A stretch of 16,704 nucleotides of DNA from the IMG/VR virus record IMGVR_UViG_2541047712_000007; one strand, written 5' to 3'. Numbering within the stretch: the stretch's first letter is position 1; every line of letters begins with the position of its first letter. The position numbers and the translations under genes are program-made. The stretch is from a virus (lineage: Duplodnaviria > Heunggongvirae > Uroviricota > Caudoviricetes). Below the pieces are notes generated by a model. The model did no database searches, was not told where the DNA came from, and saw only the letters and a list, made by a program, of their open reading frames with translations. Shown here one piece after another: positions 2,613 through 16,704 of this stretch.

Positions 2613-4274
2613 TTACACCCCGCTGAATTCTTCCAGTTTCTGGCGGTGGCTGTCGCTTATATCAAAAGCAAAATCCTCATGCTCTGCCTGGAATGTACCA
2701 AACGCCATCAGTGCCGCCACGCTCGGGTCTATCTTGTTCGGTGATTTTTTCTTGTTCGGCTTGATATTGGCGTTCGCGTCACTCTGCATCACGACGTTAC
2801 TCATCGACCAGGACAACACCGGATCGCCACGATGCACAATCACCCTGCGGTTAACAAAAACTTCGAACGATTTCGCCGCCGGACTGAATCTGAGGTAGGT
2901 TTGCGGGAACGGCTCCACCTCAAAACCTGCCCCCTGTAATTGCGTTCTGAGATGCGTGGCGTTCCACGTATCAAAGCCCACCAGCCTGATATGAAATTTC
3001 TCCGCGTCCTGCATGATGTCATCTCTGATCCGGTCGTAATCAATGCAGTCGCCAGGCGTTGTGCGTATCCAGCCCGCTTTAGCCCACTGACGATAGACAG
3101 CGCGGTTTTTATTGGCGGGGTTCTGTAGCTGGAACTCCGGCAGATAATGACGGGAAATCAGCATAATGGTTTTACCGACCGGAAAGGCATAGCATACGCT
3201 GGAAATATCGCTGGTTGATGATAAATCCAGCCCCGCGTAACACTCCTGGCCGTGTAAATCTTCCTCCGTGAACGTTCCGGCACACTCAGCCCATGCGCCG
3301 TTACCCATCCACGGGGTAGCCCCCTGGCACCAGATATTAAATCGCTTTGTCATCATCTCCACCCACTGCGACGGTATTCCCCGCGCTTTCTGGATGGTTG
3401 AGGCCAGTTTTTCACGATCGACGGAAACATCGATATTGGGATTCGCCTTTATCCACATCGCCGGATCGTCAACCTCGCTTTCATCATCCAGCTCGTAAAT
3501 CAGCACGAACATGGATTCGTTCACCTCTTCACCATCCAGTATCTGGCAGCAATAGTCGTAGTGTTGTTTACAGGCTGAAACAACGTTGCTCCCCGATGTG
3601 GTGATGGCAAATAACAGCCCCTCCGGACGCGCCCCCATTCCCAGTTCAAGCGCGGAATAAACCCCGTTGTCAGGGTGCAGGTGATATTCATCCACAATGG
3701 CAAGACTCGGGTTTGTACCTTCAATGGTTGCCGCTTTTGCTGCCAGCGGCTTTAACAGGCTGTTGCTTTTCGGGTGTATCACCTTATGCGCCTGAATATT
3801 CACTCTCTTGCGTAACGGTCGGGATAAAAGGCACATCTGACGCGCATCATCAAAAACGATCCGCGCCTGGTCGCGGCTCACCGCTGCGGTGTAAATATCC
3901 TGCTGCCCGTTCTCCATAATCAAAAACCAGTTAGCCAGAATCGCGGCTGTCGTGGATTTCGCATTTTTGCGCGGCACTTCGATAAAGGCGCTCGTGTATT
4001 TGCGCCTTCCGGTGGCCTTAACCTTAAAGCCGAGGATGCACGCAAAGGCAAACTGCTGCCACGGTTCCAGCTCAATGGGTCTTCCACGCATCGGCCCTTT
4101 TACGTGCGGGCACACCCTGGAAAAGGCAATAAACCGCTCAACAACCTCACGATCGAACATGTAAAGGGGGTTTTCAAGGTCCGAAAAGTATCGTTCAACG
4201 GTCTGTTTCAGCCGTTTACAGGCCGGAATCTTGCCCGTTTTTACGTCTTCTGCGTACTTATTCCAGGCGGTCAA
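2613..4274 (-). CDS. terL: Terminase large subunit (553 aa)
   Basis: N-terminus TAWNKYAEDVKTGKIPACKRLKQTVERY is typical of TerL. Size, and position immediately after TerS with a 17-nt overlap, fit. The first codon at 4272-4274 is TTG (GAGGA upstream), so the exact start is uncertain. Confidence 0.92.
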   Translation of the reverse strand: MTAWNKYAEDVKTGKIPACKRLKQTVERYFSDLENPLYMFDREVVERFIAFSRVCPHVKGPMRGRPIELEPWQQFAFACILGFKVKATGRRKYTSAFIEVPRKNAKSTTAAILANWFLIMENGQQDIYTAAVSRDQARIVFDDARQMCLLSRPLRKRVNIQAHKVIHPKSNSLLKPLAAKAATIEGTNPSLAIVDEYHLHPDNGVYSALELGMGARPEGLLFAITTSGSNVVSACKQHYDYCCQILDGEEVNESMFVLIYELDDESEVDDPAMWIKANPNIDVSVDREKLASTIQKARGIPSQWVEMMTKRFNIWCQGATPWMGNGAWAECAGTFTEEDLHGQECYAGLDLSSTSDISSVCYAFPVGKTIMLISRHYLPEFQLQNPANKNRAVYRQWAKAGWIRTTPGDCIDYDRIRDDIMQDAEKFHIRLVGFDTWNATHLRTQLQGAGFEVEPFPQTYLRFSPAAKSFEVFVNRRVIVHRGDPVLSWSMSNVVMQSDANANIKPNKKKSPNKIDPSVAALMAFGTFQAEHEDFAFDISDSHRQKLEEFSGV

Positions 4275-4614
4275 GCTCGTCCTCTTCTTCTGTTTCCGGT
4301 GGATTTTTACGGCGGCTTATCGGGTCAAAACCGAGCAAAGAGGCCATTTTTATCATCACTCTTTCCGCGTCGGATTTCGCGCTTAATGCGGGGTTTCTGC
4401 TCTCTCCGCCCTGACTGTTAACAATGCTGAATCCGCGCGCCGCAAGGTCTGCGACGGCTTTCCGGTATATCGAGTAATTGACGCAATACAGTTCCAGATT
4501 ACTCCAGTCGGCAGGGGTCAGGTCTCCCCGTTCCGCAAGCTGCCGCGATTTTTCCCGCCACTGCTTCACGGCGATATCATCCAGGTAGGCGGGGACTTTC
4601 GGTGGTCTTGCCAT
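4258..4614 (-). CDS. terS: Terminase small subunit, P27-like family (118 aa)
   Basis: N-terminal MARPPKVPAYLD motif, size, acidic C-terminus, and position directly upstream of and overlapping TerL. Confidence 0.85.
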   Translation of the reverse strand: MARPPKVPAYLDDIAVKQWREKSRQLAERGDLTPADWSNLELYCVNYSIYRKAVADLAARGFSIVNSQGGESRNPALSAKSDAERVMIKMASLLGFDPISRRKNPPETEEEDELDRLE

Positions 4615-4903
4615 GCTTATTTTTTCGCCAGATTATTTTTCAAAAAATTACCGTGCATAAAAATTTGGGGAGGCGTTCGGTGCCCGGCGGGGTCGGGTTT
4701 GTCCTGAAAACGCCCCCCACCCCGTCATACAGCCTCATCAGCGATTGCGGAAACATTCCATAACCTCGCAGTCACGGTCGGTTAATCGCTTCGCTGTGAT
4801 GCGTTCTGCGCGTCCTGACGCTTTATCTTTATGCCCTGTTTCTTGTGTCTTCCATGCGTCACGCTGCCTTATAAGTCCACGGATAAGGCGGTTTTGTTCC
4901 CGC
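4615..4903. other. HNH-TerS intergenic region; candidate cos/packaging initiation site
   Basis: A 289-bp non-coding gap between the HNH and TerS genes, the position where HNH-associated cos phages keep cos. It contains an AT-rich tract with tttttcaaaaaa (4621-4660) followed by a GC-rich block ggggaggcgttcggtgcccggcggggtcgggtttgtcctgaaaacgccccccacccc (4667-4724) with an imperfect inverted repeat. Confidence 0.3.
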
Positions 4904-5344
4904 TCATTCATCAGCGTCATACATCCAGTTATTGCGGTTAGCGGCCCGTTCTTCCTCTTCACGAAATCCACCTGCGGCACGCTTGCTTTTTGTTGCCGGA
5001 TCAAGCCATTTCGTTTTCTGGTTATGGCACGCCTGGCACAATGGCTGATGGTTCCATTCGGGCCAGAAGAGAACATCATCACCGCCATTAATCGGGATAA
5101 TGTGATCCACCACCACGGCGGGCGTATATATCCCCTTCTCAAGGCATCGCACGCATAACGGGTTTTTACTCAGATACATGGCGCGGTATTTGTCCCACTG
5201 TCTGGAGTACCCACGCGCGCGGCGGTGTCCTCGTCTGGCATCCTCTGCACGCCATGCCGCCCGCCTGTGCTCCTCACACTTGCCGGACTTCACGCGCCTG
5301 TTACAGCCTGGTTCTGTGCATCGTCTTAATGGTTGCCACGGCAT
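4904..5344 (-). CDS. HNH endonuclease (146 aa)
   Basis: Cys-rich zinc-binding motifs (CTEPGCNRRVKSGKCEEH, CVRC, CQACHNQ) and the HNH core VVDHIIPINGGDD...NHQPLCQACHN. Confidence 0.9.
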   Translation of the reverse strand: MPWQPLRRCTEPGCNRRVKSGKCEEHRRAAWRAEDARRGHRRARGYSRQWDKYRAMYLSKNPLCVRCLEKGIYTPAVVVDHIIPINGGDDVLFWPEWNHQPLCQACHNQKTKWLDPATKSKRAAGGFREEEERAANRNNWMYDADE

Positions 5345-5640
5345 CAGTACACCCCCACATCACGGTAAGCCGTCCAGAGTGCACCAATCGTCATGGGTAC
5401 GCGTGTTTTTGCGTTATCCGCGACAATCTGGCGATTTTCATACAGGTGAGCGATAAACATCATGCAGCCAATCTTTATGGCTGGCGTGAACTCCAGCCCG
5501 TCATCAAAGCGCCTGCCTATGTGTATCTGGCACGCCTCAAGCGATGCGGCGATGTATCCGCTGATTAACTGGTCTTCCTCGTCGCCATCGATGCGGCAAT
5601 GGAGTTTCACTTCTTCCAGGGTGATAAGTTCTTCTGTCAT
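5344..5640 (-). CDS. gp6-like head-tail connector protein (98 aa)
   Basis: MTEELITLEEVKLHCRIDGDEEDQLISGYIAAS matches the N-terminal pattern of phage gp6-type connector proteins. Start overlaps the upstream stop (ATGA). Confidence 0.7.
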   Translation of the reverse strand: MTEELITLEEVKLHCRIDGDEEDQLISGYIAASLEACQIHIGRRFDDGLEFTPAIKIGCMMFIAHLYENRQIVADNAKTRVPMTIGALWTAYRDVGVY

Positions 5641-5975
5641 TTTTCCGCGCCCTCACGACAAAGAATTTCAAGGCGTGTCCTGGCGGCATCCGGCAGCGGC
5701 TGCCCGATGATATTCAGTACACGCCCCGCCAGCGGCCCCGTATTGACCTTTATCCGGCTGGTGGCGTTGATGTCCTTCCTGTAGCGTATCCATATCCTTA
5801 CCGTTCCAGTCGCCAGTTCTGCACCCGATGAAATGGCCTCCTTGCTGCTGATCATGTTCACGCTTGCCCAGAGTGTGTGACCGTCCTCCCACGTTTCGAG
5901 TATTTCGCCGGTTATATCCCTGGTCTGTTTCAGGGTCTGAATCGTTACCCTGTCACGCAGTCGCCCTATGTTCAT
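5637..5975 (-). CDS. Head-tail adaptor / head-closure protein (Phage_H_T_join-like), about 112 aa from the internal ATG
   Basis: RLRDRVTIQ...IRYRKDI...LEILCRE pattern. The ATG at 5975 overlaps the portal stop (ATGA) and has a GAGGGAG upstream. The ORF extends in frame to an ATG at 6017 that has no Shine-Dalgarno. Confidence 0.7.
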   Translation of the reverse strand: MNIGRLRDRVTIQTLKQTRDITGEILETWEDGHTLWASVNMISSKEAISSGAELATGTVRIWIRYRKDINATSRIKVNTGPLAGRVLNIIGQPLPDAARTRLEILCREGAEK

Positions 5976-7183
5976 TCCGGTTTTTCTCCCTCGCTGATTT
6001 TTACTTCCTGTTTCCATGCCTGGCTGAACTCATCACCACCATCACGCGGGGACAGCCCTTCACGTTCGCGGGCTTCGTTCGGGCACATAACGCCGGATTT
6101 GATGCCGCGTTCATAGGTGGCAAAGCGTTCGCCAGGAGTGGCCCGTAACAGGTCCGCGCTGTCAAACTCCACCTGATACCGGATACCAGGTACAGGTGAG
6201 GCCACCAGCAGGGCGTTTTTTATCTGCTGCTCAAAGTTCGCCAGCCACGGGCGCATCGTCATGGTGAGAAATGCGCGGCTTGCCTCGCTGAAATTGCTGT
6301 AGGTGCTGTTGCTGTATTCCTGCAAAAAAATCGGCGAGACGTTGAACATTCGGGCGATGTCTTCAATGGTGAAGCGACGGGAGGCCAGCCATTCAGCATC
6401 CTGATTACTCATGCCCAGCTGCTGATAGCTCATACCCCCTTCAAGGATGGGCGTTTTTCCGGCGTTTCTGGCCCCTTTGTAGCGTTCCAGTGCGGCTAAT
6501 GCCTGTTTGCCCTTCACGCCGTCCAGCCATTCGCCTGACGTGATAACCCCTGCCGCCATCATGCCATCACGCATCACGCTCGCGCCGTGGCGTTGTTGGG
6601 CCAGCCCAAGCCCCAGCGATTCGCGGCAGATGGTTACAGGTGAGCGCCCCATAAAACCGTCATCCGTGGAGTAACGAAGGTGGAGAACCTCCCACGGTAA
6701 ATAGTTGCGGGTGTTTCCGGTGTAGGCGTCAGTGATGCAGTAGCGCCAGTTATGCTCACCTGTCTGCTCAACGTTCACCGACTGCGGCGGGTAAGGATGC
6801 AAAGCGACTGGAAAACCATCACGCCCCCACTGAATCACCGCATAAGCATTACCGTTTAACAGGCAGTGGCGGATCATCATTCGCTTAAACTGGTAGGGGG
6901 TTTGCCATGCGTTCGGGCGCTCGTTGAGGATGTGATCGACCGGATGAGAATCAAGCCACTCTCGGGCCTCCTTCCCCTTCTCATTGCGTACCAGGTACAG
7001 GTAACACGGCATGGTAGCCACCGCCTCAGAGATGACCGTGACGGCGTTCATGACGGCGGGCAGTGATTCCGCTGTCCCCGATGATACGTACTCACCCGCC
7101 CCCGTGTTCGATGTGCCAGCCAGCGCCATAAACTCATCAAGCGTCATGCTGCGCTGCTCTTTTTTTCTTCTGAAAGGCCACAT
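5972..7183 (-). CDS. Portal protein, HK97 family (403 aa)
   Basis: Size and the motif RRFTIEDIARMFNVSPIFL characteristic of HK97-type portals. ATG at 7183 with a G-rich Shine-Dalgarno. Confidence 0.93.
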   Translation of the reverse strand: MWPFRRKKEQRSMTLDEFMALAGTSNTGAGEYVSSGTAESLPAVMNAVTVISEAVATMPCYLYLVRNEKGKEAREWLDSHPVDHILNERPNAWQTPYQFKRMMIRHCLLNGNAYAVIQWGRDGFPVALHPYPPQSVNVEQTGEHNWRYCITDAYTGNTRNYLPWEVLHLRYSTDDGFMGRSPVTICRESLGLGLAQQRHGASVMRDGMMAAGVITSGEWLDGVKGKQALAALERYKGARNAGKTPILEGGMSYQQLGMSNQDAEWLASRRFTIEDIARMFNVSPIFLQEYSNSTYSNFSEASRAFLTMTMRPWLANFEQQIKNALLVASPVPGIRYQVEFDSADLLRATPGERFATYERGIKSGVMCPNEAREREGLSPRDGGDEFSQAWKQEVKISEGEKPE

Positions 7184-7184
7184 A

Positions 7185-7757
7185 TCACACCCCCGCTAAA
7201 TCCGCCCACCAGCGGCGATTATCCGCACGCGGCATTTTTTCGGGGTGCTGCTCGTACAGGGAGCGGCGGGCCAGCTCCACGCCGGAATCAGGGTAAGCCG
7301 GTACGGATGTAACGGTAATTTCGTATAGTTCCGCCACCAGCACGGTGCGCACGCATGGATCTGTTGTGGTATCCCATACATCCTTACGGGAACGAAAGCC
7401 AAAGCTCATGCCGGATATATCACCTCGTTTAACCAGTTCGATAACGTCGCGCCCTGTACTGGTATCCGGTGGGGTCAGTTCAAAGCGTAACCCTGTTTCG
7501 TCCTCTTCCAGTTTCAGCGTGCCGGAACGGGTGCGCCCCAGTAACATGCTGTGGTCATGCTCATACAGGCCGCGAACGTCATTACCCGCCGCAAGCCACT
7601 CAGTAAACGCCCCCCGCTGGAATTTTTCGTAAAACTCCCCCCATAGCAGTTCTGAAAGCTTATCCCAGCGAACAACGTAGCCCGTCAGCGTACCGGCTCC
7701 GCTGGTAGTGATTTCCGATGACCGGATTTCCATACTCTTCATAATTTTTTCACCCAT
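7185..7757 (-). CDS. Prohead maturation protease, HK97 family (about 180-190 aa)
   Basis: GYVVRWDK...LYEHD...LGRTRSGTLKLEEDETGL matches the HK97 prohead protease family. The start could be the ATG at 7757, 7742 or 7733. Confidence 0.88.
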   Translation of the reverse strand: MGEKIMKSMEIRSSEITTSGAGTLTGYVVRWDKLSELLWGEFYEKFQRGAFTEWLAAGNDVRGLYEHDHSMLLGRTRSGTLKLEEDETGLRFELTPPDTSTGRDVIELVKRGDISGMSFGFRSRKDVWDTTTDPCVRTVLVAELYEITVTSVPAYPDSGVELARRSLYEQHPEKMPRADNRRWWADLAGV

Positions 7758-7786
7758 AAAACACTAAAGGGGCTTTTAAGCCCCTT
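7757..7786 (-). terminator. Intrinsic terminator or attenuator between the capsid and protease genes
   Basis: Minus-strand hairpin aaggggcttaaaagcccctt (8-bp stem, 7767-7774 pairing with 7779-7786) followed by a U-rich run (uaguguuuua). Confidence 0.5.
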
Positions 7787-7796
7787 CTGTATGCTG

Positions 7797-8954
7797 TTAA
7801 TCGTCGTCCTGTGGCAGTTCCAGAATCTTGATCGCGTTCGAATCCACCACGCCACCGCCTAAATATTTCTGCGTGAAAATTTTGATGAAGCCCGGCTCTG
7901 TGAGGTTGTCCGGTCTGGTGCGAACACCTGTTTCGTGATCAACAATGTAGTAACCGCGTTTGAAGTCACCCAGGGCAATAACGTTATCAGGCATAAACTC
8001 CAGATATTCGACCGGAAGGCCCAGCAACGTATCAGGATCACCCGCCTGTAAACGGTCGCGCCAGATGTAATCACCGTTCGCGTTCTTCACCTTCTGAAGT
8101 TTTGCCGCCGTCGTGGAGTTAACCACCCAGACCGCGTTTTTGCGGTATTTTTTACGTAATGCAAATTTCAGGTCGATCAGCGGGTCCGCAGATGTCCACG
8201 CCAGAGATTCGGAAGGTTTAATTACCTGCAACGTACCAAAATCACGCTCTTTGTCGTTCTTCTCTGCACGGGGTACGGATAAAAAACCTTTTGCTTTTTT
8301 GTCACCGTCGCCCACAACCAGATCGCTTTCTTCGGTTTCCGTGAAGGTGTCGCCAATCTCACCCGTCAGCCATGAAAGGATGTCCACATCGGAAAAATCC
8401 ACGATTTCCTGTGTGGTGCGCGGGTACGCATAGACCGGATACAGCTTAATGCTCACCTCGTTAATCTGCGGGGTGCTGGTCTGTTCGCGTGTCTTACCCT
8501 CTTCACCGTGGTTAACGGTCGCACCGCCAGCGGAAACAAGCTGCTTAAACTCGTTGCTGCTGATTTTCTTCACGGTACAGATGCGGCGCATGGTGGATTC
8601 ATCCGTCAGCATTCGCATGATTTCGGTGTTCAGTTCGGGGATAACGGTATAACCACCATCAGCGGGAACGCCTGTACTTAATGCGCGGGTTTCACCTGTC
8701 AGAATGTAGTTGCGTAGTTCTGCGGGGTCAGTGGTCTGGCTGCTTTTACCTGGCTTGCTGCGCTCTTCGTCTGCAATGGCTTCAAGGCGGGAAATGTCTT
8801 TATCGAGGGATTCAGCTTTAGCGCGTAATTCGTCAAATTTTGCGCCCTCAGCATCGTTAAGACTGCGGTTTTCTTTTTCCGCGTTCTCCAGCATGTCGCG
8901 CATCTGATTTTTAATGGCGGTTTTCTGCTGGCGTAATTCGATTATTCTCGGCAT
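7797..8954 (-). CDS. Major capsid protein, HK97 fold, with N-terminal coiled-coil delta/scaffold-like domain (385 aa from the ATG at 8954)
   Basis: HK97-family capsid-like C-terminal two thirds. The N-terminal roughly 90 aa are charged and heptad-like, and no separate scaffold gene exists. ATG at 8954 with AGGA upstream; the ORF track extends to a GTG at 9002. Confidence 0.92.
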   Translation of the reverse strand: MPRIIELRQQKTAIKNQMRDMLENAEKENRSLNDAEGAKFDELRAKAESLDKDISRLEAIADEERSKPGKSSQTTDPAELRNYILTGETRALSTGVPADGGYTVIPELNTEIMRMLTDESTMRRICTVKKISSNEFKQLVSAGGATVNHGEEGKTREQTSTPQINEVSIKLYPVYAYPRTTQEIVDFSDVDILSWLTGEIGDTFTETEESDLVVGDGDKKAKGFLSVPRAEKNDKERDFGTLQVIKPSESLAWTSADPLIDLKFALRKKYRKNAVWVVNSTTAAKLQKVKNANGDYIWRDRLQAGDPDTLLGLPVEYLEFMPDNVIALGDFKRGYYIVDHETGVRTRPDNLTEPGFIKIFTQKYLGGGVVDSNAIKILELPQDDD

Positions 8955-9210
8955 AAAAAAAGTCCTGGGGTTAAGTAAGGAACTCCAGGACGCGGCAAAC
9001 ACTCAACCGTTTTTCATAAGGAAATCAGTAATCGCACCGATCGTTTTCCCGCCTGGTAATGAATATTGGCGAGCACATTAACAGGCGGGAAAATGGCCCC
9101 AGCGTCCTGGCACCACGGGCGAGAATAATCATGATTCAGGTCGGGTAAAATATGCCGTTCCGGTCAGCGAGCAACGTGGAACAACCACGAACAAATAATT
9201 TACAAAACAT

Positions 9211-9524: not shown

Positions 9525-9935
9525 TCAGAACGGAATACCGTCACCGTAAGGGTCATCGCCTCCCGCTGGTGGCTGATTACCCTGTGTGCCTGTGGTTTTG
9601 CGTCTGTTCCCGCCAGGACGTGCCGCACGGGCACTGATTACGCTGTCTGCAATAACCTGATAACCCTGCCGCGTTTCCCCGTTCTGTCCCGTCCACTGGC
9701 TGACCTGCATCGTGCCGGATACGCTGGCAACGTCGCCTTTTTGATGTTTAGCCAGGAAGTCGGCCTGCTTACCAAATGCGATGACCGATAGCCATAACGT
9801 CGCCTGCCCATCCTGCGCCTGACTACATGGCAACGATACCGCCATACGCGCCAGCGTCATCGGTGTGCCCTTACTGGTCTGTTTTACCTGCGGGTCGTCC
9901 ACCAGCCGCCCGTAAGCCGCTATCTGTGCTGTCAT
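9525..9935 (-). CDS. ssb: Single-stranded DNA-binding protein (136 aa)
   Basis: OB-fold-like N-terminal region (AAYGRLVDDPQV...LWLSVIAFGKQADFL), Gly/Gln/Pro-rich linker, and the C-terminal acidic tail ...DDPYGDGIPF resembling the SSB DDDIPF tip. ATG overlaps the upstream stop; GGAGAGGTGG Shine-Dalgarno. Confidence 0.85.
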   Translation of the reverse strand: MTAQIAAYGRLVDDPQVKQTSKGTPMTLARMAVSLPCSQAQDGQATLWLSVIAFGKQADFLAKHQKGDVASVSGTMQVSQWTGQNGETRQGYQVIADSVISARAARPGGNRRKTTGTQGNQPPAGGDDPYGDGIPF

Positions 9936-10210
9936 GATTCCACCTCTCCGGTTTTAACGTTGATGGTTGTTACCTGTTCCGCTTCGGCAATCTCCCGTTC
10001 TGTCAGCGTGGCAAAGTTTGCCGCCGCCGTGGTCATGAATGCGCTTATCAGTTCGGGATGTGCTTTCGCGTATCCTTCCCCCGCGTGGCGGTCTATCGTT
10101 CTGATTGCCACCTTTAAAGCGTGCTCTGTCATGTCTAACGCGCGATATTTCGGTTCTGTTCTGTCTCTGCGTTTTTTGAGTGATTTATTAAATTTCCCTG
10201 AAGTGTGCAT
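9932..10210 (-). CDS. Hypothetical protein (92 aa), first gene after the origin
   Basis: ATG at 10210 with a GAGGGGG upstream; translationally coupled to ssb. No family recognised. Confidence 0.5.
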   Translation of the reverse strand: MHTSGKFNKSLKKRRDRTEPKYRALDMTEHALKVAIRTIDRHAGEGYAKAHPELISAFMTTAAANFATLTEREIAEAEQVTTINVKTGEVES

Positions 10211-10254
10211 ATTTATTTTTACCCCCTCGTTTAAAAAGTTTTGAGTTGTGCCTC

Positions 10255-10490
10255 CCCTTGTCTACCTTATCTACCTTACTGGCTCTCATGCCAGTAATGG
10301 CGCGGCTTTCAGCGGGGTAGAGTGCTTTTATCCACTATCTACCCCGTGTCTACCTCCCTGTCTGATTCAGGTAAAATCAGGTAGAGAGGGTAGATAGTGG
10401 GTAGACAGTAAAAAAAGGCTATCTACCTAACTTAATGCACTGAATTAAATGTATTTTTCTTTACTCAGGTAGACAGGGTAGACAGCAATT
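10255..10490. repeat. Iteron-type replication origin
   Basis: At least 11 copies of the 7-mer GGTAGA(C/G/T) in both orientations (for example tgtctaccttatctacc 10259-10275, ggtagagagggtagatagtgggtagacag 10380-10408, caggtagacagggtagacag 10466-10485), interspersed with A/T tracts, directly 3' of the primase gene. Confidence 0.75.
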
Positions 10491-10498
10491 ACAAAAAA

Positions 10499-12253
10499 TT
10501 ATAAAAACGCGTCGCACTCGTCTGTTGTTATTGCGTTAGTCTGCGTTACTCCCTTAACTTTCCGCGTAATATATTCATGTCCGTAAACTTTCGCGGCTGG
10601 CTTCATAGCCTTGCCAAAGTCATTTACGTTTAGCGGTTTGCTCCTGCCTGCGTACGCCATAAACGCCAGATAGACGCGGTAAAGACTGTTTCTGGTCGTG
10701 TACTTCACTGAATCGCCACCGCCGCCCATCATCAGGCCGCGTGCTTCCTCCAGAAAATTCAGGAACTGGCAAAACTCAATAACCGGATCCGTCTGTTGCT
10801 TTATTGCCAGAGCTTCATCACCGTCACGCTGTTCCAGTAGTAAAGCCCTCGCCTTCTCAGGGTCGGTAAAGTTCGCCAGCAATCGGCGGATAATGACAGG
10901 GATTTCAGCCGCGATCTTTTCCGGTAGCTCCCTGTCTTTTTCGGCCTCACTGACGATATTGTCGAAACGGAAAATCACGCGACGACGTGCCACACCTCCG
11001 GCCCGTTCGGTGAATATCATCGGGTTATTGTTGGTCGCCAGCACCACCGCCCTGATTACAGCCGTGAAACGCTTTTCGTATTTCGGGTTAATTTCCACGG
11101 GGTCACCGCCCGTGATTTTCTTGATGCCCGTTCCTTCGCCTGTATATTTCGGCTGGTCAGCCAGGACGATAAGACGACTCCCGACAACCTGCGCACGTCC
11201 ACCAGCATCATCAAGCGATGTCATTTCAGCGCTTACCGTGTTCTGTTTCCCTGCCAGAAGGCTGGCTATGTGTGTGAATGTACTTTTACCGCTCCCGCCG
11301 TCTCCGGTGGCCTCAATAAACATCTGCCAGTCGTACCGGTTCGCCATAATCATGTACAGCGCGGCACATATACGCATCATCTTGCGCGGGTCTTTTCCGG
11401 CTGCGTGCTCAAGCCATTTATGAAAGTTTGGCGCGTTATCGCGGATGTTCTCCCCTGGTGCTGGTGGCGTGTACTCAATGCCGTTGTGCGTGGTGATCCA
11501 GTTCTCCGGCGTGTGCGGGGAAAATTCCCCCGTTTTCAGGTCAAGCGCACCATTGGCGAACGGCAGCAAATCGCCGGACGGCTCGCCCATTGGTTCGGCA
11601 ATAACTTTTAACGCTTCCACGGCGTTATTGATTACGCGCTTGCTGAAAGTGGCCCTGTGCTCTGAATAGATCGCCACCATTTCGCGGCTAAGTTCCATTG
11701 TGCTGACCGGACACCATACCCCGCCGCGCCATACGTGAACGATTTCACTTTCAGGATGTACGCAAACGCCATCAAAGCGATCGGCAAGCAGCTGCGCGCG
11801 CTCACTGTCCGCCATCTGCGAAAGTTGCGCCTTTTGCTTTACCGGAAGCTCAATGACCAGACCATCAGAAAGATTCTGGCGCTCACGGGCCAGATATTCG
11901 CGCCAGTTCTCCACCTTCTGACCGTGCATACCCTCAGGATAAAAATTTGCATCCTGTACGCCTGCCGCCGCCAGCTTCTGGCCAATCGCCTTTATCATTA
12001 CTGGCGCAAGATATCCGGCCCTGAATATGCGCACGGATTTTCTGCCTTCCGGCACAATTTGCAGCTTATCCAGTTCTGATAACTGCTGCTCCCCAAGCCA
12101 CACAGGAGGCTCATTATCTCCGGCCATACGCGCATCATGTTCCTGCCATTGTTTCGCGTGTGCCCAGGCATCACTACCCGCAAAAATAATGACTTCTGTT
12201 CCTTTGTGTTTTATGCCGCGTGACTGCTGTTTTACGTTCGGTGCCAGTTTCAT
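10499..12253 (-). CDS. P4-family primase / SF3-type helicase replication protein (584 aa)
   Basis: Walker A motif TGDGGSGKSTF in the C-terminal half, size, and the position upstream of the iteron origin. ATG overlaps the upstream stop (ATGA). Confidence 0.9.
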   Translation of the reverse strand: MKLAPNVKQQSRGIKHKGTEVIIFAGSDAWAHAKQWQEHDARMAGDNEPPVWLGEQQLSELDKLQIVPEGRKSVRIFRAGYLAPVMIKAIGQKLAAAGVQDANFYPEGMHGQKVENWREYLARERQNLSDGLVIELPVKQKAQLSQMADSERAQLLADRFDGVCVHPESEIVHVWRGGVWCPVSTMELSREMVAIYSEHRATFSKRVINNAVEALKVIAEPMGEPSGDLLPFANGALDLKTGEFSPHTPENWITTHNGIEYTPPAPGENIRDNAPNFHKWLEHAAGKDPRKMMRICAALYMIMANRYDWQMFIEATGDGGSGKSTFTHIASLLAGKQNTVSAEMTSLDDAGGRAQVVGSRLIVLADQPKYTGEGTGIKKITGGDPVEINPKYEKRFTAVIRAVVLATNNNPMIFTERAGGVARRRVIFRFDNIVSEAEKDRELPEKIAAEIPVIIRRLLANFTDPEKARALLLEQRDGDEALAIKQQTDPVIEFCQFLNFLEEARGLMMGGGGDSVKYTTRNSLYRVYLAFMAYAGRSKPLNVNDFGKAMKPAAKVYGHEYITRKVKGVTQTNAITTDECDAFL

Positions 12254-12549
12254 TTTTTACCCCTGAATCCTTTAATCATGGTTTTCATCTTCTGAATATT
12301 GGCGCGTGCTTTCTCCCTGCTGGTGGGCACGTTACGCGGTACGGCCTGCACAAGAGAAAAATCACGGTCGAACTGATAAACAGGCATCACGCAATCATAT
12401 TCGTAGCCTTCACGACGGTAGGTTACGCGCCGTTCCTCCACGCCCTTAATCATTACCGTGCCGCCGTACTTATCGCGGTAAATATCACCGCGCATGAATT
12501 TAGTGCGAGTTTTGCCACTGGCAGTTAAGCCAGAATATTTAAGTTTCAT
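12250..12549 (-). CDS. Hypothetical protein (99 aa), basic
   Basis: ATG at 12549 with GGAGAA upstream; translationally coupled to the primase. No family recognised. Confidence 0.6.
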   Translation of the reverse strand: MKLKYSGLTASGKTRTKFMRGDIYRDKYGGTVMIKGVEERRVTYRREGYEYDCVMPVYQFDRDFSLVQAVPRNVPTSREKARANIQKMKTMIKGFRGKK

Positions 12550-13369: not shown

Positions 13370-13586
13370 GGTGCACCTCCTGCACATCAGCCATGATAAT
13401 TTTTCCGGCCTTATCCAGTGCCTGATCGGCTTTTAGCTGCACAAATGCTAAATAATGGAAGATGCATTCTGATTCTCTGGCTGCGTGTTTATGCGCCCTG
13501 TCAGCAATAACAGAAATATCAATAAGCGCGTGCATCAGCGTAGTGAGCGCGGCGGCTGCTGCGTCCGGTGTGGTTTTATTGCACAT
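13362..13586 (-). CDS. Hypothetical protein (74 aa)
   Basis: ATG at 13586 with AGGGGGT Shine-Dalgarno. Confidence 0.5.
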   Translation of the reverse strand: MCNKTTPDAAAAALTTLMHALIDISVIADRAHKHAARESECIFHYLAFVQLKADQALDKAGKIIMADVQEVHHA

Positions 13587-13782
13587 GGCCTACCCCCTGG
13601 CGAATACGGGCAGCGAATACCATCACGCAGCCATCAGGAGATTGCTGACGCGCTTCCTGTTCGCTGGTGGCCTCGATGGTAATCACGCGCGGTTGTGCCG
13701 TGCTCAGGGCGATAAAACGCCAGATGTATTTATTCAGGTCGTGCGAATCCCGCCCTTGCGGGTGTGTGGTATGATTTCTCAT
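13576..13782 (-). CDS. Hypothetical protein (68 aa), first gene of the leftward operon
   Basis: ATG at 13782 with GAGG 5 nt upstream. It is the C-terminal, plausible part of a 430-aa track ORF whose remainder is antisense to plus-strand genes and the operator region. Confidence 0.45.
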   Translation of the reverse strand: MRNHTTHPQGRDSHDLNKYIWRFIALSTAQPRVITIEATSEQEARQQSPDGCVMVFAARIRQGVGHVQ

Positions 13783-13878
13783 AGCTACCTCGATACTTTC
13801 GCTATCGTTGGTGGTTAGAAGCCCGGTTAGTGTTAGCGCACTGCCGGGTTTCGTCGTTTCTGCACCTTGCGCCAACAA

Positions 13879-13931
13879 GGTGTTGAACACCAATTTAAAC
13901 CCAGGTGTTAAACACGTCAAGTGTTGAACAC
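13879..13931. promoter_or_regulatory. Triple palindromic operator in a divergent promoter region
   Basis: Three copies of the palindrome GTGTT-N-AACAC: gtgttgaacac (13880-13890), gtgttaaacac (13905-13915), gtgttgaacac (13921-13931), lying between the leftward operon start (13782) and the plus-strand RHH gene (13982). Confidence 0.7.
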
Positions 13932-13981
13932 TTATTTTTTTTCCTGCATACTGCATTTGTTTTTTATGAGGGGTACACCAC

Positions 13982-14161
13982 ATGGCGACAAAAGCAGTAA
14001 ACGCAAAATCACAAACCGTTGCGGCAAGGGTTCCGCATGAAGTTATGAACAATGTTGAGGCGGTAAAAATGCCTGGCGAAAGTACGGGGCAATTTGTTAC
14101 TGCGGCATTAAAACGAGAAGTTGAATATCGCCAGCGGCGCAAGGCCAAAGAACCAGAGTAA
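13982..14161 (+). CDS. Ribbon-helix-helix (Arc/CopG-like) DNA-binding protein, 59 aa; candidate island repressor
   Basis: ATG at 13982 with GAGGGG Shine-Dalgarno. The translation has an RHH-like beta-strand (QTVAARVPHEV) followed by two helices. Below the ORF-track length cutoff; I translated it directly. Confidence 0.6.
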   Translation: MATKAVNAKSQTVAARVPHEVMNNVEAVKMPGESTGQFVTAALKREVEYRQRRKAKEPE

Positions 14162-14218
14162 TCACCATCAGCGCCGTGGTGTGAGGAACTACGGCGCATT
14201 GCTATGCAGGACAACACA

Positions 14219-14392
14219 ATGACCGATAAAGAATTGACCAAAACATTATCACCGGCACGGAAAAGACGGCGCAGAAAGATAGAGCATGAATCAGAAAGAT
14301 TCGCGCCATGTGCTTTTGCCCTTGAGCAATTCCTTAAAGAGTACAGGGAAAAGCGCTCATTGCAGGTATGGCAACGAACTGAACCAGACTGA
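14219..14392 (+). CDS. Hypothetical small basic protein (about 57 aa)
   Basis: ATG at 14219 with AGGA 7 nt upstream (track ORF starts at 14204). Arg-rich (RKRRRRK); followed by a plus-strand terminator. Confidence 0.3.
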   Translation: MTDKELTKTLSPARKRRRRKIEHESERFAPCAFALEQFLKEYREKRSLQVWQRTEPD

Positions 14393-14470
14393 TTGCATTG
14401 CCCACCAGCCGCAAATGTGGCATTGTTGGCAATGCTCATGCGTTGGGGATAACGTGTAGCTTGTGTCGAG

Positions 14471-14500
14471 GGGCCACCGTAGCGGGTGGCCTTTGTTTTG
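14471..14500 (+). terminator. Rho-independent terminator (plus strand)
   Basis: Hairpin ggccacc-gtagcg-ggtggcc followed by tttgttttg. Confidence 0.6.
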
Positions 14501-14594
14501 CCCGTTATTCGGCAATTGTGGCGCTTCTCCACATGGTTGATATAATCCCACTGCTCAGATTCATTTTTTGCGCAGTAGGTTAATTGTTCACAAA

Positions 14595-14626
14595 GGCGCT
14601 CCGGCAACGGGGCGCTTTTTGTTTTT
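14595..14626 (+). terminator. Rho-independent terminator (plus strand), GNRA loop
   Basis: Hairpin gcgctccg-GCAA-cggggcgc (8 bp including one G-U) followed by tttttgttttt. Confidence 0.6.
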
Positions 14627-14920
14627 ATTAGTTTGTAGAAACCTGACTCAGAGATAATGCTCATATTCTGATTGCCGTCAGGGGTGTAAGTTAAATTTAC
14701 TCCCTTTTTATCATCAAACATCTGCAACGCTCTGGCGTTAGCAATATTGGTTTCACTCCCGCCAGTAAGGCCGGAAATAACCGGAATAATTTCGGCAAAA
14801 TTTTGCAGATTCTGTTTTTCAGGACGAACGAAGCCCCGCCCTTGTTCGGGAGAATATCCAGTATTCATGGTTAGATCTCTGTATTAGTGGATGGGTGGCG
14901 GCTGTGTGCCGCCAGCCTGA

Positions 14921-15474: not shown

Positions 15475-16704
15475 TTATATTTCTCTGGCTATTGGCAATG
15501 TGGTTACGTTTTCATGTGTTCCCGCCAGTATCCCTAACCGCTCCGTCCACATATCCAGCGCGTCACGTTTCGCATCCAGATAACGGGAATGGTTATAGAC
15601 TCGTTGCATCCCTGGCATCTGATGACCTGTAAGCTGCTCCACGACGTGAGGATCCACGCCTAAATCGTTCAGCATCGTTGTAAAGGTGCGCCGGATGTCA
15701 TGCAGTGACCAGTGAGGGTGTTTTAGCCTCCTGTGCGCTAATCTGCCGTACTGCGACACGCTTGTTTCCTGTTTCACTTCCCCCAGCAATAAGCCCGTGT
15801 GCCTGTTCTGCTCCACCAGCTGCGTGACGAACGGCAGTATTGCTTCCGGTATGGGCCGGAATATTGCCACCTTCGTTTTGCTGTGTTCTTTCGGCACGGT
15901 CCAGAGCATTTCGGTAAAATCCCACTCGCTGATCTCCGATAACCTCAGTTCTACCGTCCGGCATCCGAAAACAATCAGGAGGCGGATTAGTGCGACGTAG
16001 TAAGGGGAAAATATTTTTTTGTCCAGTGCCTGCAATAATTCGCCAAGTTCTTTGGTGCTTAAGACGCGCTCGCTTATATCCGGTTTTTTCCCAACGTCCG
16101 CCACACTCATATCATCAAGAACGTTGCTGATTGCATAGCGCCGCCTCCGGCAGAACTTAAGCGCCTGTTTGCACGTCTGTAGCAAGAATCCGGCAGTAAC
16201 AGGCGTTCGCTTTGCCACCTGGTCAAAACAGGCCAGCCAGTGCCGTAGCTCGCATTTATCCAGCGGCATAGCACCAATGTGCTGTATTACGTGATTATTA
16301 AGGCGCTTTTTCAGGGCGGCATAATCCACGCGGTTTTCCTTTGCGTACGACTCAAGCCAGTAGGTGAGCGCATCGCCAACCGTTACCGGCTTTAACGCTT
16401 CCTGTACGGTGTAATTCATTTCATGACGTGGATTTTTCCCCTCTGCCAGCCATGCGCGACACTGGGCGGCTTTTTCCCTGGCTGATTTCAGGCTCAGATC
16501 AGGATAATTTCCCAGCTTAATGCGTTCCGGTGGTGCCCCCCTTCCCGTTCCGGCCCTGTAAGTGAAATACCAGGTTAAAAGGCCACTGGTTGAATGCCTG
16601 ACGCTCAGGTTTCCACCGTCATTAAGAAAGGCTGTTTTTTGGGCGGGTGTGCCGTTGATTTTCCTCAGCTGTGTATCGCTCAGTTTGTTAAGTGCTCTGC
16701 TCAT
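15475..16704 (-). CDS. int: Tyrosine integrase, P4-like family (409 aa)
   Basis: C-terminal catalytic signature LHDIRRTF...GHQMPGMQRVYNHSRY (His-x-x-Arg box plus terminal Tyr) and a long N-terminal arm/core-binding region. Start codon is the last three bases of the window. Confidence 0.93.
   Translation of the reverse strand: MSRALNKLSDTQLRKINGTPAQKTAFLNDGGNLSVRHSTSGLLTWYFTYRAGTGRGAPPERIKLGNYPDLSLKSAREKAAQCRAWLAEGKNPRHEMNYTVQEALKPVTVGDALTYWLESYAKENRVDYAALKKRLNNHVIQHIGAMPLDKCELRHWLACFDQVAKRTPVTAGFLLQTCKQALKFCRRRRYAISNVLDDMSVADVGKKPDISERVLSTKELGELLQALDKKIFSPYYVALIRLLIVFGCRTVELRLSEISEWDFTEMLWTVPKEHSKTKVAIFRPIPEAILPFVTQLVEQNRHTGLLLGEVKQETSVSQYGRLAHRRLKHPHWSLHDIRRTFTTMLNDLGVDPHVVEQLTGHQMPGMQRVYNHSRYLDAKRDALDMWTERLGILAGTHENVTTLPIAREI

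Follow-up and report, generated by a model that had tools for sequence, protein, structure and literature searches.

A GGTAGA iteron cluster of EcCICFT073 origin type in a capsid-forming PICI of Escherichia coli

The gap that follows the pri-rep initiator gene of the viral record IMGVR_UViG_2541047712_000007 (16,704 nt, the whole stretch of DNA that we analysed, hereafter the window) contains 11 copies of GGTAGA. This cluster is the already known EcCICFT073-type origin, described and deletion-tested in 2018, because the sequences tested in that year comprise ori DNA 95.5% identical, and an initiator 99% identical, to those of the window. We are confident that the cluster serves as the Pri-Rep-dependent, cis-acting replication origin of the island, because its repeats are strongly enriched, it is orthologous to a tested ori, its cores appear to be under selection, its iteron word covaries with the initiator, it shares homology with the P4 and SaPI systems, and it travels together with its initiator gene.

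By its gene content, compared with the published criteria for cf-PICIs, the element is a capsid-forming PICI of E. coli. It has an integrase gene (15475-16704), a one-directional regulatory and replication module, packaging genes, a size in the range of 10-18 kb and a specific att site, and in E. coli 266917_2 an identical copy of the island has phoQ and roxA as its neighbours. The genes flanking the ori are all on the minus strand, with a 288-bp gap separating pri-rep from an ORF of 92 aa (9932-10210) that starts at position 10210, and the first iteron is found 16 nt past the pri-rep stop. The original prediction had set the cluster inside the operon, between the primase gene and the next ORF, and this placement was correct. 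The RefSeq annotation of E. coli 266917_2 has nothing in this gap. Downstream of the ori, the 92-aa ORF is followed by the gene for an SSB, probably a replication accessory protein, by a PerC homolog and by an HK97-type module, which is here complete, with capsid, protease, portal, connector, HNH, TerS (4258-4614) and TerL (2613-4274) genes, the last two at 5.5 kb from the array. The left half additionally includes HTH and DUF4222 genes. A promoter and terminator scan of the ori region found neither a terminator nor a sigma-70-like promoter on the gene strand. Elsewhere in the window, a mechanically called ORF of 430 aa (13576-14868, minus strand) is unannotated in RefSeq; the identical genome has Icd-like and YlcI/YnfO small genes and a truncated BRO-N pseudogene across the same interval, and this ORF is therefore probably spurious.

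Motif counts returned 12 copies of GGTAGAB in the window, 11 of them at 10260-10483, as compared with 2.74 ± 1.65 expected for its whole length; none of 200 dinucleotide-preserving shuffles reached 12 copies, ruling out a chance origin of the cluster. Likewise, there are 13 copies of the bare hexamer GGTAGA, 11 of which fall within 222 bp (10261-10482), whereas the expectation is 3.85 ± 1.92 per 16.7 kb, or around 0.05 per stretch of 222 bp. Outside the cluster there are only single copies, at 488 and 15950, and the count revealed no second GGTAGA cluster in the 16.7-kb window. The cores, six on the plus and five on the minus strand (Table 1), are followed by C in five cases, by T in four and by G in two, and together with their flanks they define the extended consensus RGGTAGAYAG. 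Within a group, neighbouring iterons start 9 or 11 bp from each other, about one helical turn. The 11 cores follow the orientation string <<(40 nt, 78% AT)><<<>><>>, in which the AT-rich spacer is off-centre, with two iterons on one side and nine on the other; a run of seven A residues lies near 10410. The sequence had originally been described as a dense cluster of GGTAGA(C/G/T) in both orientations with interspersed A/T tracts, and both parts of this description are borne out, the former by 11 perfect cores and the outcome of the shuffles, and the latter by the A+T-rich spacer and the A7 run.

Table 1. Features of the ori region and its surroundings in the window, and window equivalents of published plasmid constructs.
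Feature	Coordinates	Strand	Remarks
Whole intergenic ori region	10211-10498	-	288 bp; from pri-rep stop to next ORF
Iteron 1	10477-10482	+	Nearest to pri-rep stop; GGTAGA core, context GGGTAGACAG
Iteron 2	10468-10473	+	AGGTAGACAG; 9 bp from iteron 1
A+T-rich spacer	10428-10467	.	40 nt, 78% AT; presumed DNA-unwinding element
Iteron 3	10422-10427	-	AGGTAGATAG; orientation opposite to iterons 1-2
Iteron 4	10400-10405	+	GGGTAGACAG
Iteron 5	10389-10394	+	GGGTAGATAG
Iteron 6	10380-10385	+	AGGTAGAGAG
Iteron 7	10349-10354	-	AGGTAGACAC
Iteron 8	10338-10343	-	GGGTAGATAG
Iteron 9	10316-10321	+	GGGTAGAGTG
GC-rich block	10292-10311	-	20 nt, non-iteron; TGAAAGCCGCGCCATTACTG
Iteron 10	10270-10275	-	AGGTAGATAA
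Iteron 11	10261-10266	-	AGGTAGACAA
Pri-Rep initiator gene	10499-12253	-	584 aa
Pri-Rep winged helix	10517-10792	-	Residues 488-579; presumed iteron reader; homology to 1KA8
Island SSB gene	9525-9935	-	Two genes downstream of ori
pJP2027	about 10188-12297		pri-ori; window equivalent
pJP2028	stops at about 10495		pri-Δori
pJP2029	without about 10828-11800		Δpri-ori; missing part lies within pri-rep

Besides the iterons, the block TGAAAGCCGCGCCATTACTG is nearly invariant in eight E. coli alleles while the spacer around it drifts, and it is absent from the relatives of TGTTCAC type described below. Other candidate elements were discarded. The sequence TTATCCACT (10328-10336, plus strand, between iterons 8 and 9) matches the DnaA box TTATCCACA at eight of nine positions; it is confined to the allele shared by the window, CFT073 and Shigella, so that it does not represent a conserved feature, and the window has 7 near-matches to the DnaA box where 3.1 are expected, a number that does not exceed chance. 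A hairpin formed by TTACTGGC/GCCAGTAA, at about 10283-10304, has a stem that CFT073 retains and other alleles do not. An RNA gene was likewise rejected, as an Rfam scan of 9800-10900 with a permissive threshold gave only sub-threshold matches to microRNA hairpins, which are due to the inverted iterons.

Iteron origins situated 3' of pri-rep in Gram-negative PICIs were described by Fillol-Salom et al. 2018 (ISME J, PMC6092414). The gap of the window has its counterpart in the chromosome of E. coli CFT073, in a segment that conserves all 11 cores, within an island occupying the same phoQ-roxA site and having the same left half (int, alpA-type HTH, DUF4222, pri-rep, ori, ssb and perC). We identify this island as EcCICFT073, because the supplement of PMC6092414 gives c1493 (DUF4222) as a gene of EcCICFT073 and the recombineering primer pri-4c, used in that study for Δpri and containing the two primase-proximal iterons, matches the CFT073 locus exactly. 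The initiator of the window is identical to the EcCICFT073 Pri-Rep at 578 of 584 residues. The two ori sequences differ by 13 substitutions over 288 bp, none of them inside a GGTAGA hexamer and four beside the cores, at the base 5' of the core or at the seventh base. The AT-rich spacer is also shared, whereas the right halves differ, being of HK97 type in the window (capsid, protease, portal, HNH, TerS and TerL) and containing capsid and decoration genes in EcCICFT073.

We mapped the published cloning primers (PMC6092414) onto the CFT073 locus, where they matched exactly, and onto their window equivalents (Table 1). The published Δori removes the equivalent of 10188-10494, that is, the whole iteron cluster; therefore, the published 'ori' deletion is a deletion of the very cluster that had been flagged from the sequence. 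According to PMC6092414, the pri-ori fragment of EcCICFT073 maintained a temperature-sensitive plasmid at 44 °C, the restrictive temperature, while colony numbers were 'significantly reduced' with pri-Δori and Δpri-ori, and are not stated to have been abolished. Others have thus shown for a near-identical ortholog that plasmid maintenance needs the ori region in cis and pri-rep in trans. A cloning test resembling the one put forward with the original prediction was in this way already published (PMC6092414), and the prediction of a satellite replication origin gains support from the orthology to the EcCICFT073 ori together with these deletions.

Of 5,426 complete genomes of E. coli, 564 contain related gap sequences. 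We aligned eight E. coli alleles, six of them in addition to those of the window and CFT073, with gaps either 73-78% identical to that of the window or alignable over part of their length only. The six diverged alleles keep 9-11 GGTAGA cores in the same positions and orientations. Additionally, 54 of the 66 core columns of the eight-allele alignment are invariant, versus 41 of 170 non-core columns over the same span, a pattern that points to purifying selection on cores and core positions, with drift in the spacers. The last 35 nt or so before the ATG of the downstream ORF are also highly conserved in this alignment.

Among islands, the array is always 3' of the initiator gene and the downstream packaging modules vary. 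The left half, from int to perC and including the ori, is joined to unlike right halves (2613-9002 in the window, 4629-7821 in locus L002, and others in loci L003-L008); in other islands, ClpP protease is fused to capsid, or the right half has TerS with ProQ. Classical and capsid-forming PICIs have in this way exchanged modules at a single att site. We also observed that the 3' flank of the iteron tracks the start of the recognition helix among E. coli alleles, with YAG accompanying NVNDFG and RGG accompanying NVA(E/D)FS; the helix is a predicted one, placed by alignment to 1KA8 and from the description in PMC2777425. With two or three lineages sampled, this pairing of YAG and RGG with the helix is suggestive and no more.

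Pri-Rep consists, in this order, of an N-terminal domain with no known match, D5_N, an SF3 helicase and a winged helix. Its domain matches are D5_N, DUF5906 (SF3 helicase) and Pox_D5, with a further match to TIGR01613, 'primase, P4 family, C-terminal domain'. The helicase core resembles PriRep5 of SaPI5 (7OLA, E 3.7e-15), residues 488-579 resemble the origin-binding winged-helix domain of P4 α (1KA8, E 7e-7), and P4 α shows 40.2% identity over residues 141-579 in tblastn. Conversely, the N-terminal 140 residues or so (11834-12253, minus strand) had no match in Pfam, in NCBIfam or among PDB sequences; no alignment to P4 α was obtained for residues 1-140, and hhalign against the primase region of α returned a probability of 0.4%. 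A primase catalytic domain was thus undetectable in Pri-Rep with Pfam, NCBIfam and hhalign against P4 α. The N-terminus is hypervariable among E. coli alleles, with 46-98% identity as compared with 83-100% for the rest of the protein, and a single-sequence AlphaFold model of this domain (pLDDT 53.6) was too poor for a fold search. The gene had originally been called a primase, a name that holds as a P4-family label but not as a description of the protein, which has D5_N, SF3 helicase and winged-helix parts; the name derives only from TIGR01613, a family that covers the helicase part. Homology and covariation lead us to presume that the iterons are read by the C-terminal winged helix of Pri-Rep.

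A genome scan with a single protein yielded only three loci, which limits the sample for covariation. The strongest comparative argument comes from more distant relatives, in Serratia aquatilis, Morganella morganii and the 16.5-kb Klebsiella-type element vB_KppS-Ant, whose initiators are, respectively, 53%, 52% and 41% identical to that of the window (overall range 40-53%). Each contains 10-11 repeats directly past the stop codon of the initiator gene, but these repeat TGTTCAC/T instead of GGTAGA. The second repeat is followed in these three relatives by a spacer of 38-39 nt with 77-89% A+T, and spacers across all the relatives examined measure 38-40 nt with 69-89% AT. The string <<(AT)><<<>><>> is common to the window, Serratia and vB_KppS-Ant, and Morganella keeps its opening, <<(AT)>. 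The winged helices of the TGTTCAC group are only 31-34% identical to that of the window, and the genes downstream of the ori also differ, with a capsid gene in vB_KppS-Ant and an HTH/TerS-like ORF in Serratia. In this limited sample, the iteron word appears to covary with the winged helix of the initiator, with the geometry kept. The repeats used by Serratia (locus L010, 3268-3540) and vB_KppS-Ant (L013, 4253-4520) are the type-1 repeat of P4, TGTTCACC (L012, 4291-4590). The presence of TGTTCACC in the same 11-site string links the origins of Gram-negative PICIs to P4 crr.

These data are compatible with the following course of replication. Helper-phage induction, as published for EcCICFT073, would turn on the rightward operon, leading to production of Pri-Rep, whose winged helix would bind the 11 RGGTAGAYAG iterons in their pairs or triplets 9-11 bp apart. 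Following the precedents of SaPI Rep and P4 α, Pri-Rep bound at both sides of the A+T-rich spacer would then oligomerise and melt it, and would load itself as an SF3 hexamer without a separate loader. The island SSB would probably coat and stabilise the single strands, with synthesis carried out by host enzymes and polymerase. Points that weigh against the origin reading are the off-centre position of the AT-rich spacer, the absence of a detectable primase domain in Pri-Rep, and a Δori that lowered colony numbers but is not said to have abolished them. The array may also have a second role, for example as a roadblock or in autoregulation, between pri-rep and the genes after it.

The array could instead be an accessory cis element similar to P4 crr, with the true start of replication elsewhere, for example inside pri-rep. 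P4 crr indeed occupies the same place, 3' of α, with type-1 repeats in both orientations and with the ori 4.5 kb away, initiator and P4 α share 40% identity over residues 141-579, and the Δori cut colony numbers, with no abolition reported in PMC6092414. We nevertheless consider this reading unlikely: other than the strays at 488 and 15950, the window has no GGTAGA outside the array that could form a second cluster, the pri-ori fragment of EcCICFT073 gave maintenance by itself (PMC6092414), and the array possesses its own conserved AT-rich spacer of unwinding type.

A regulatory function, with the repeats being operators for a regulator of the downstream ssb, perC and packaging genes and not replication sites, would suit a cluster that sits just ahead of the next ORF in a one-directional operon, as well as the high conservation of the 35 nt or so ahead of the ATG of that ORF and the lack of a terminator found between pri-rep and the downstream genes. 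However, the scan found no sigma-70-like promoter on the gene strand, and the iteron changes with the winged helix of the initiator but with none of the downstream genes, which themselves differ among relatives, as seen with the vB_KppS-Ant capsid and the Serratia HTH/TerS-like ORF. Deletion of the region, moreover, impairs replication-dependent maintenance (PMC6092414); we thus hold an operator role to be very improbable. Arrays of short repeats are often bound by terminase small subunits, and the array might accordingly be taken for the packaging (cos/pac) recognition site of a capsid-forming island. Yet the same array is found in EcCICFT073 and in islands whose packaging modules are of quite another kind, or which lack any of this type, terS and terL of the window are 5.5 kb from it, and the cos sites of EcCICFT073 are separate and were handled as mutants of their own, Δcos.1 and Δcos.2 (PMC6092414), so that this explanation has a negligible probability. 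We therefore maintain the reading of the cluster as a Pri-Rep-dependent origin.

That PICIs are defined in part by an iteron origin 3' of pri-rep has been published, and the discovery value of this origin is consequently small; its value is one of annotation, filling a 288-bp gap that is blank in RefSeq, and of showing a capsid-forming PICI with the replication module of the classical EcCICFT073. It is modestly new that the 11-site geometry is deeply conserved although the iteron word has switched, and that a so-called primase occurs without a primase domain. One 11-site geometry with two iteron words and two types of winged helix constitutes a natural experiment on initiator-iteron specificity, and this pattern could guide swap experiments.

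The SaPI Reps are self-loading initiator-helicases in which a C-terminal winged helix recognises the iterons, and the SaPI ori, which follows rep directly on its 3' side, has 6-12 oppositely oriented iterons surrounding an AT-rich centre (PMC9371898). The origin of the window is alike in its position immediately 3' of the initiator gene and in having as initiator an SF3 helicase with a C-terminal winged helix. Unlike in SaPIs, its iterons have another sequence and its host is Gram-negative, the AT region is off-centre (2 + 9) instead of roughly symmetric, and the N-terminal domain of the initiator is unrelated and has no recognisable primase part. At the sequence level, the array nevertheless has every feature that characterises a PICI origin, with its location 3' of the initiator and its opposed iterons placed on both sides of an AT-rich segment, if asymmetrically (2 + 9), and the functional evidence is provided by the published EcCICFT073 ortholog.

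P4 α bears a DnaG-type primase domain at its N-terminus, in place of which the initiator of the window has an unrelated domain of around 140 aa. The similarities to P4 are an SF3 helicase initiator with a C-terminal winged helix homologous to that of α, iterons paired at 9 bp, in both orientations, around an AT-rich stretch, and an array positioned directly 3' of the initiator gene, like crr. In the P4 record X51522, the α gene is followed directly on its 3' side by crr, with copies of TGTTCACC, the 'ori type 1 repeats', pointing both ways, and the ori is about 4.5 kb from crr. Conversely, the iteron of the window is GGTAGA and not the type-1 TGTTCACC, a single cluster stands in place of an ori plus a distant crr, and no terminator is found between the gene and the array. 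Tentatively, and with a probability that we place well below even, the GGTAGA ori could be a replicon of P4 α/crr type with a switched iteron specificity, a swapped primase domain and orthogonal variants within E. coli. The scaffold of 11 sites, <<(AT)><<<>><>>, would have been kept while TGTTCAC changed to GGTAGA together with the winged helix, the P4 primase domain would have been replaced by the hypervariable N-terminal domain, and the E. coli pairs YAG/NVNDFG and RGG/NVA(E/D)FS could represent mutually orthogonal replicon types. If true, such types would let several islands coexist in one cell, and the switch of specificity would contradict the published view that the P4 and Gram-negative PICI replicons evolved independently. 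Whatever its ancestry, the GGTAGA ori works like the crr/ori of P4 but belongs outside the P4 replicon type.
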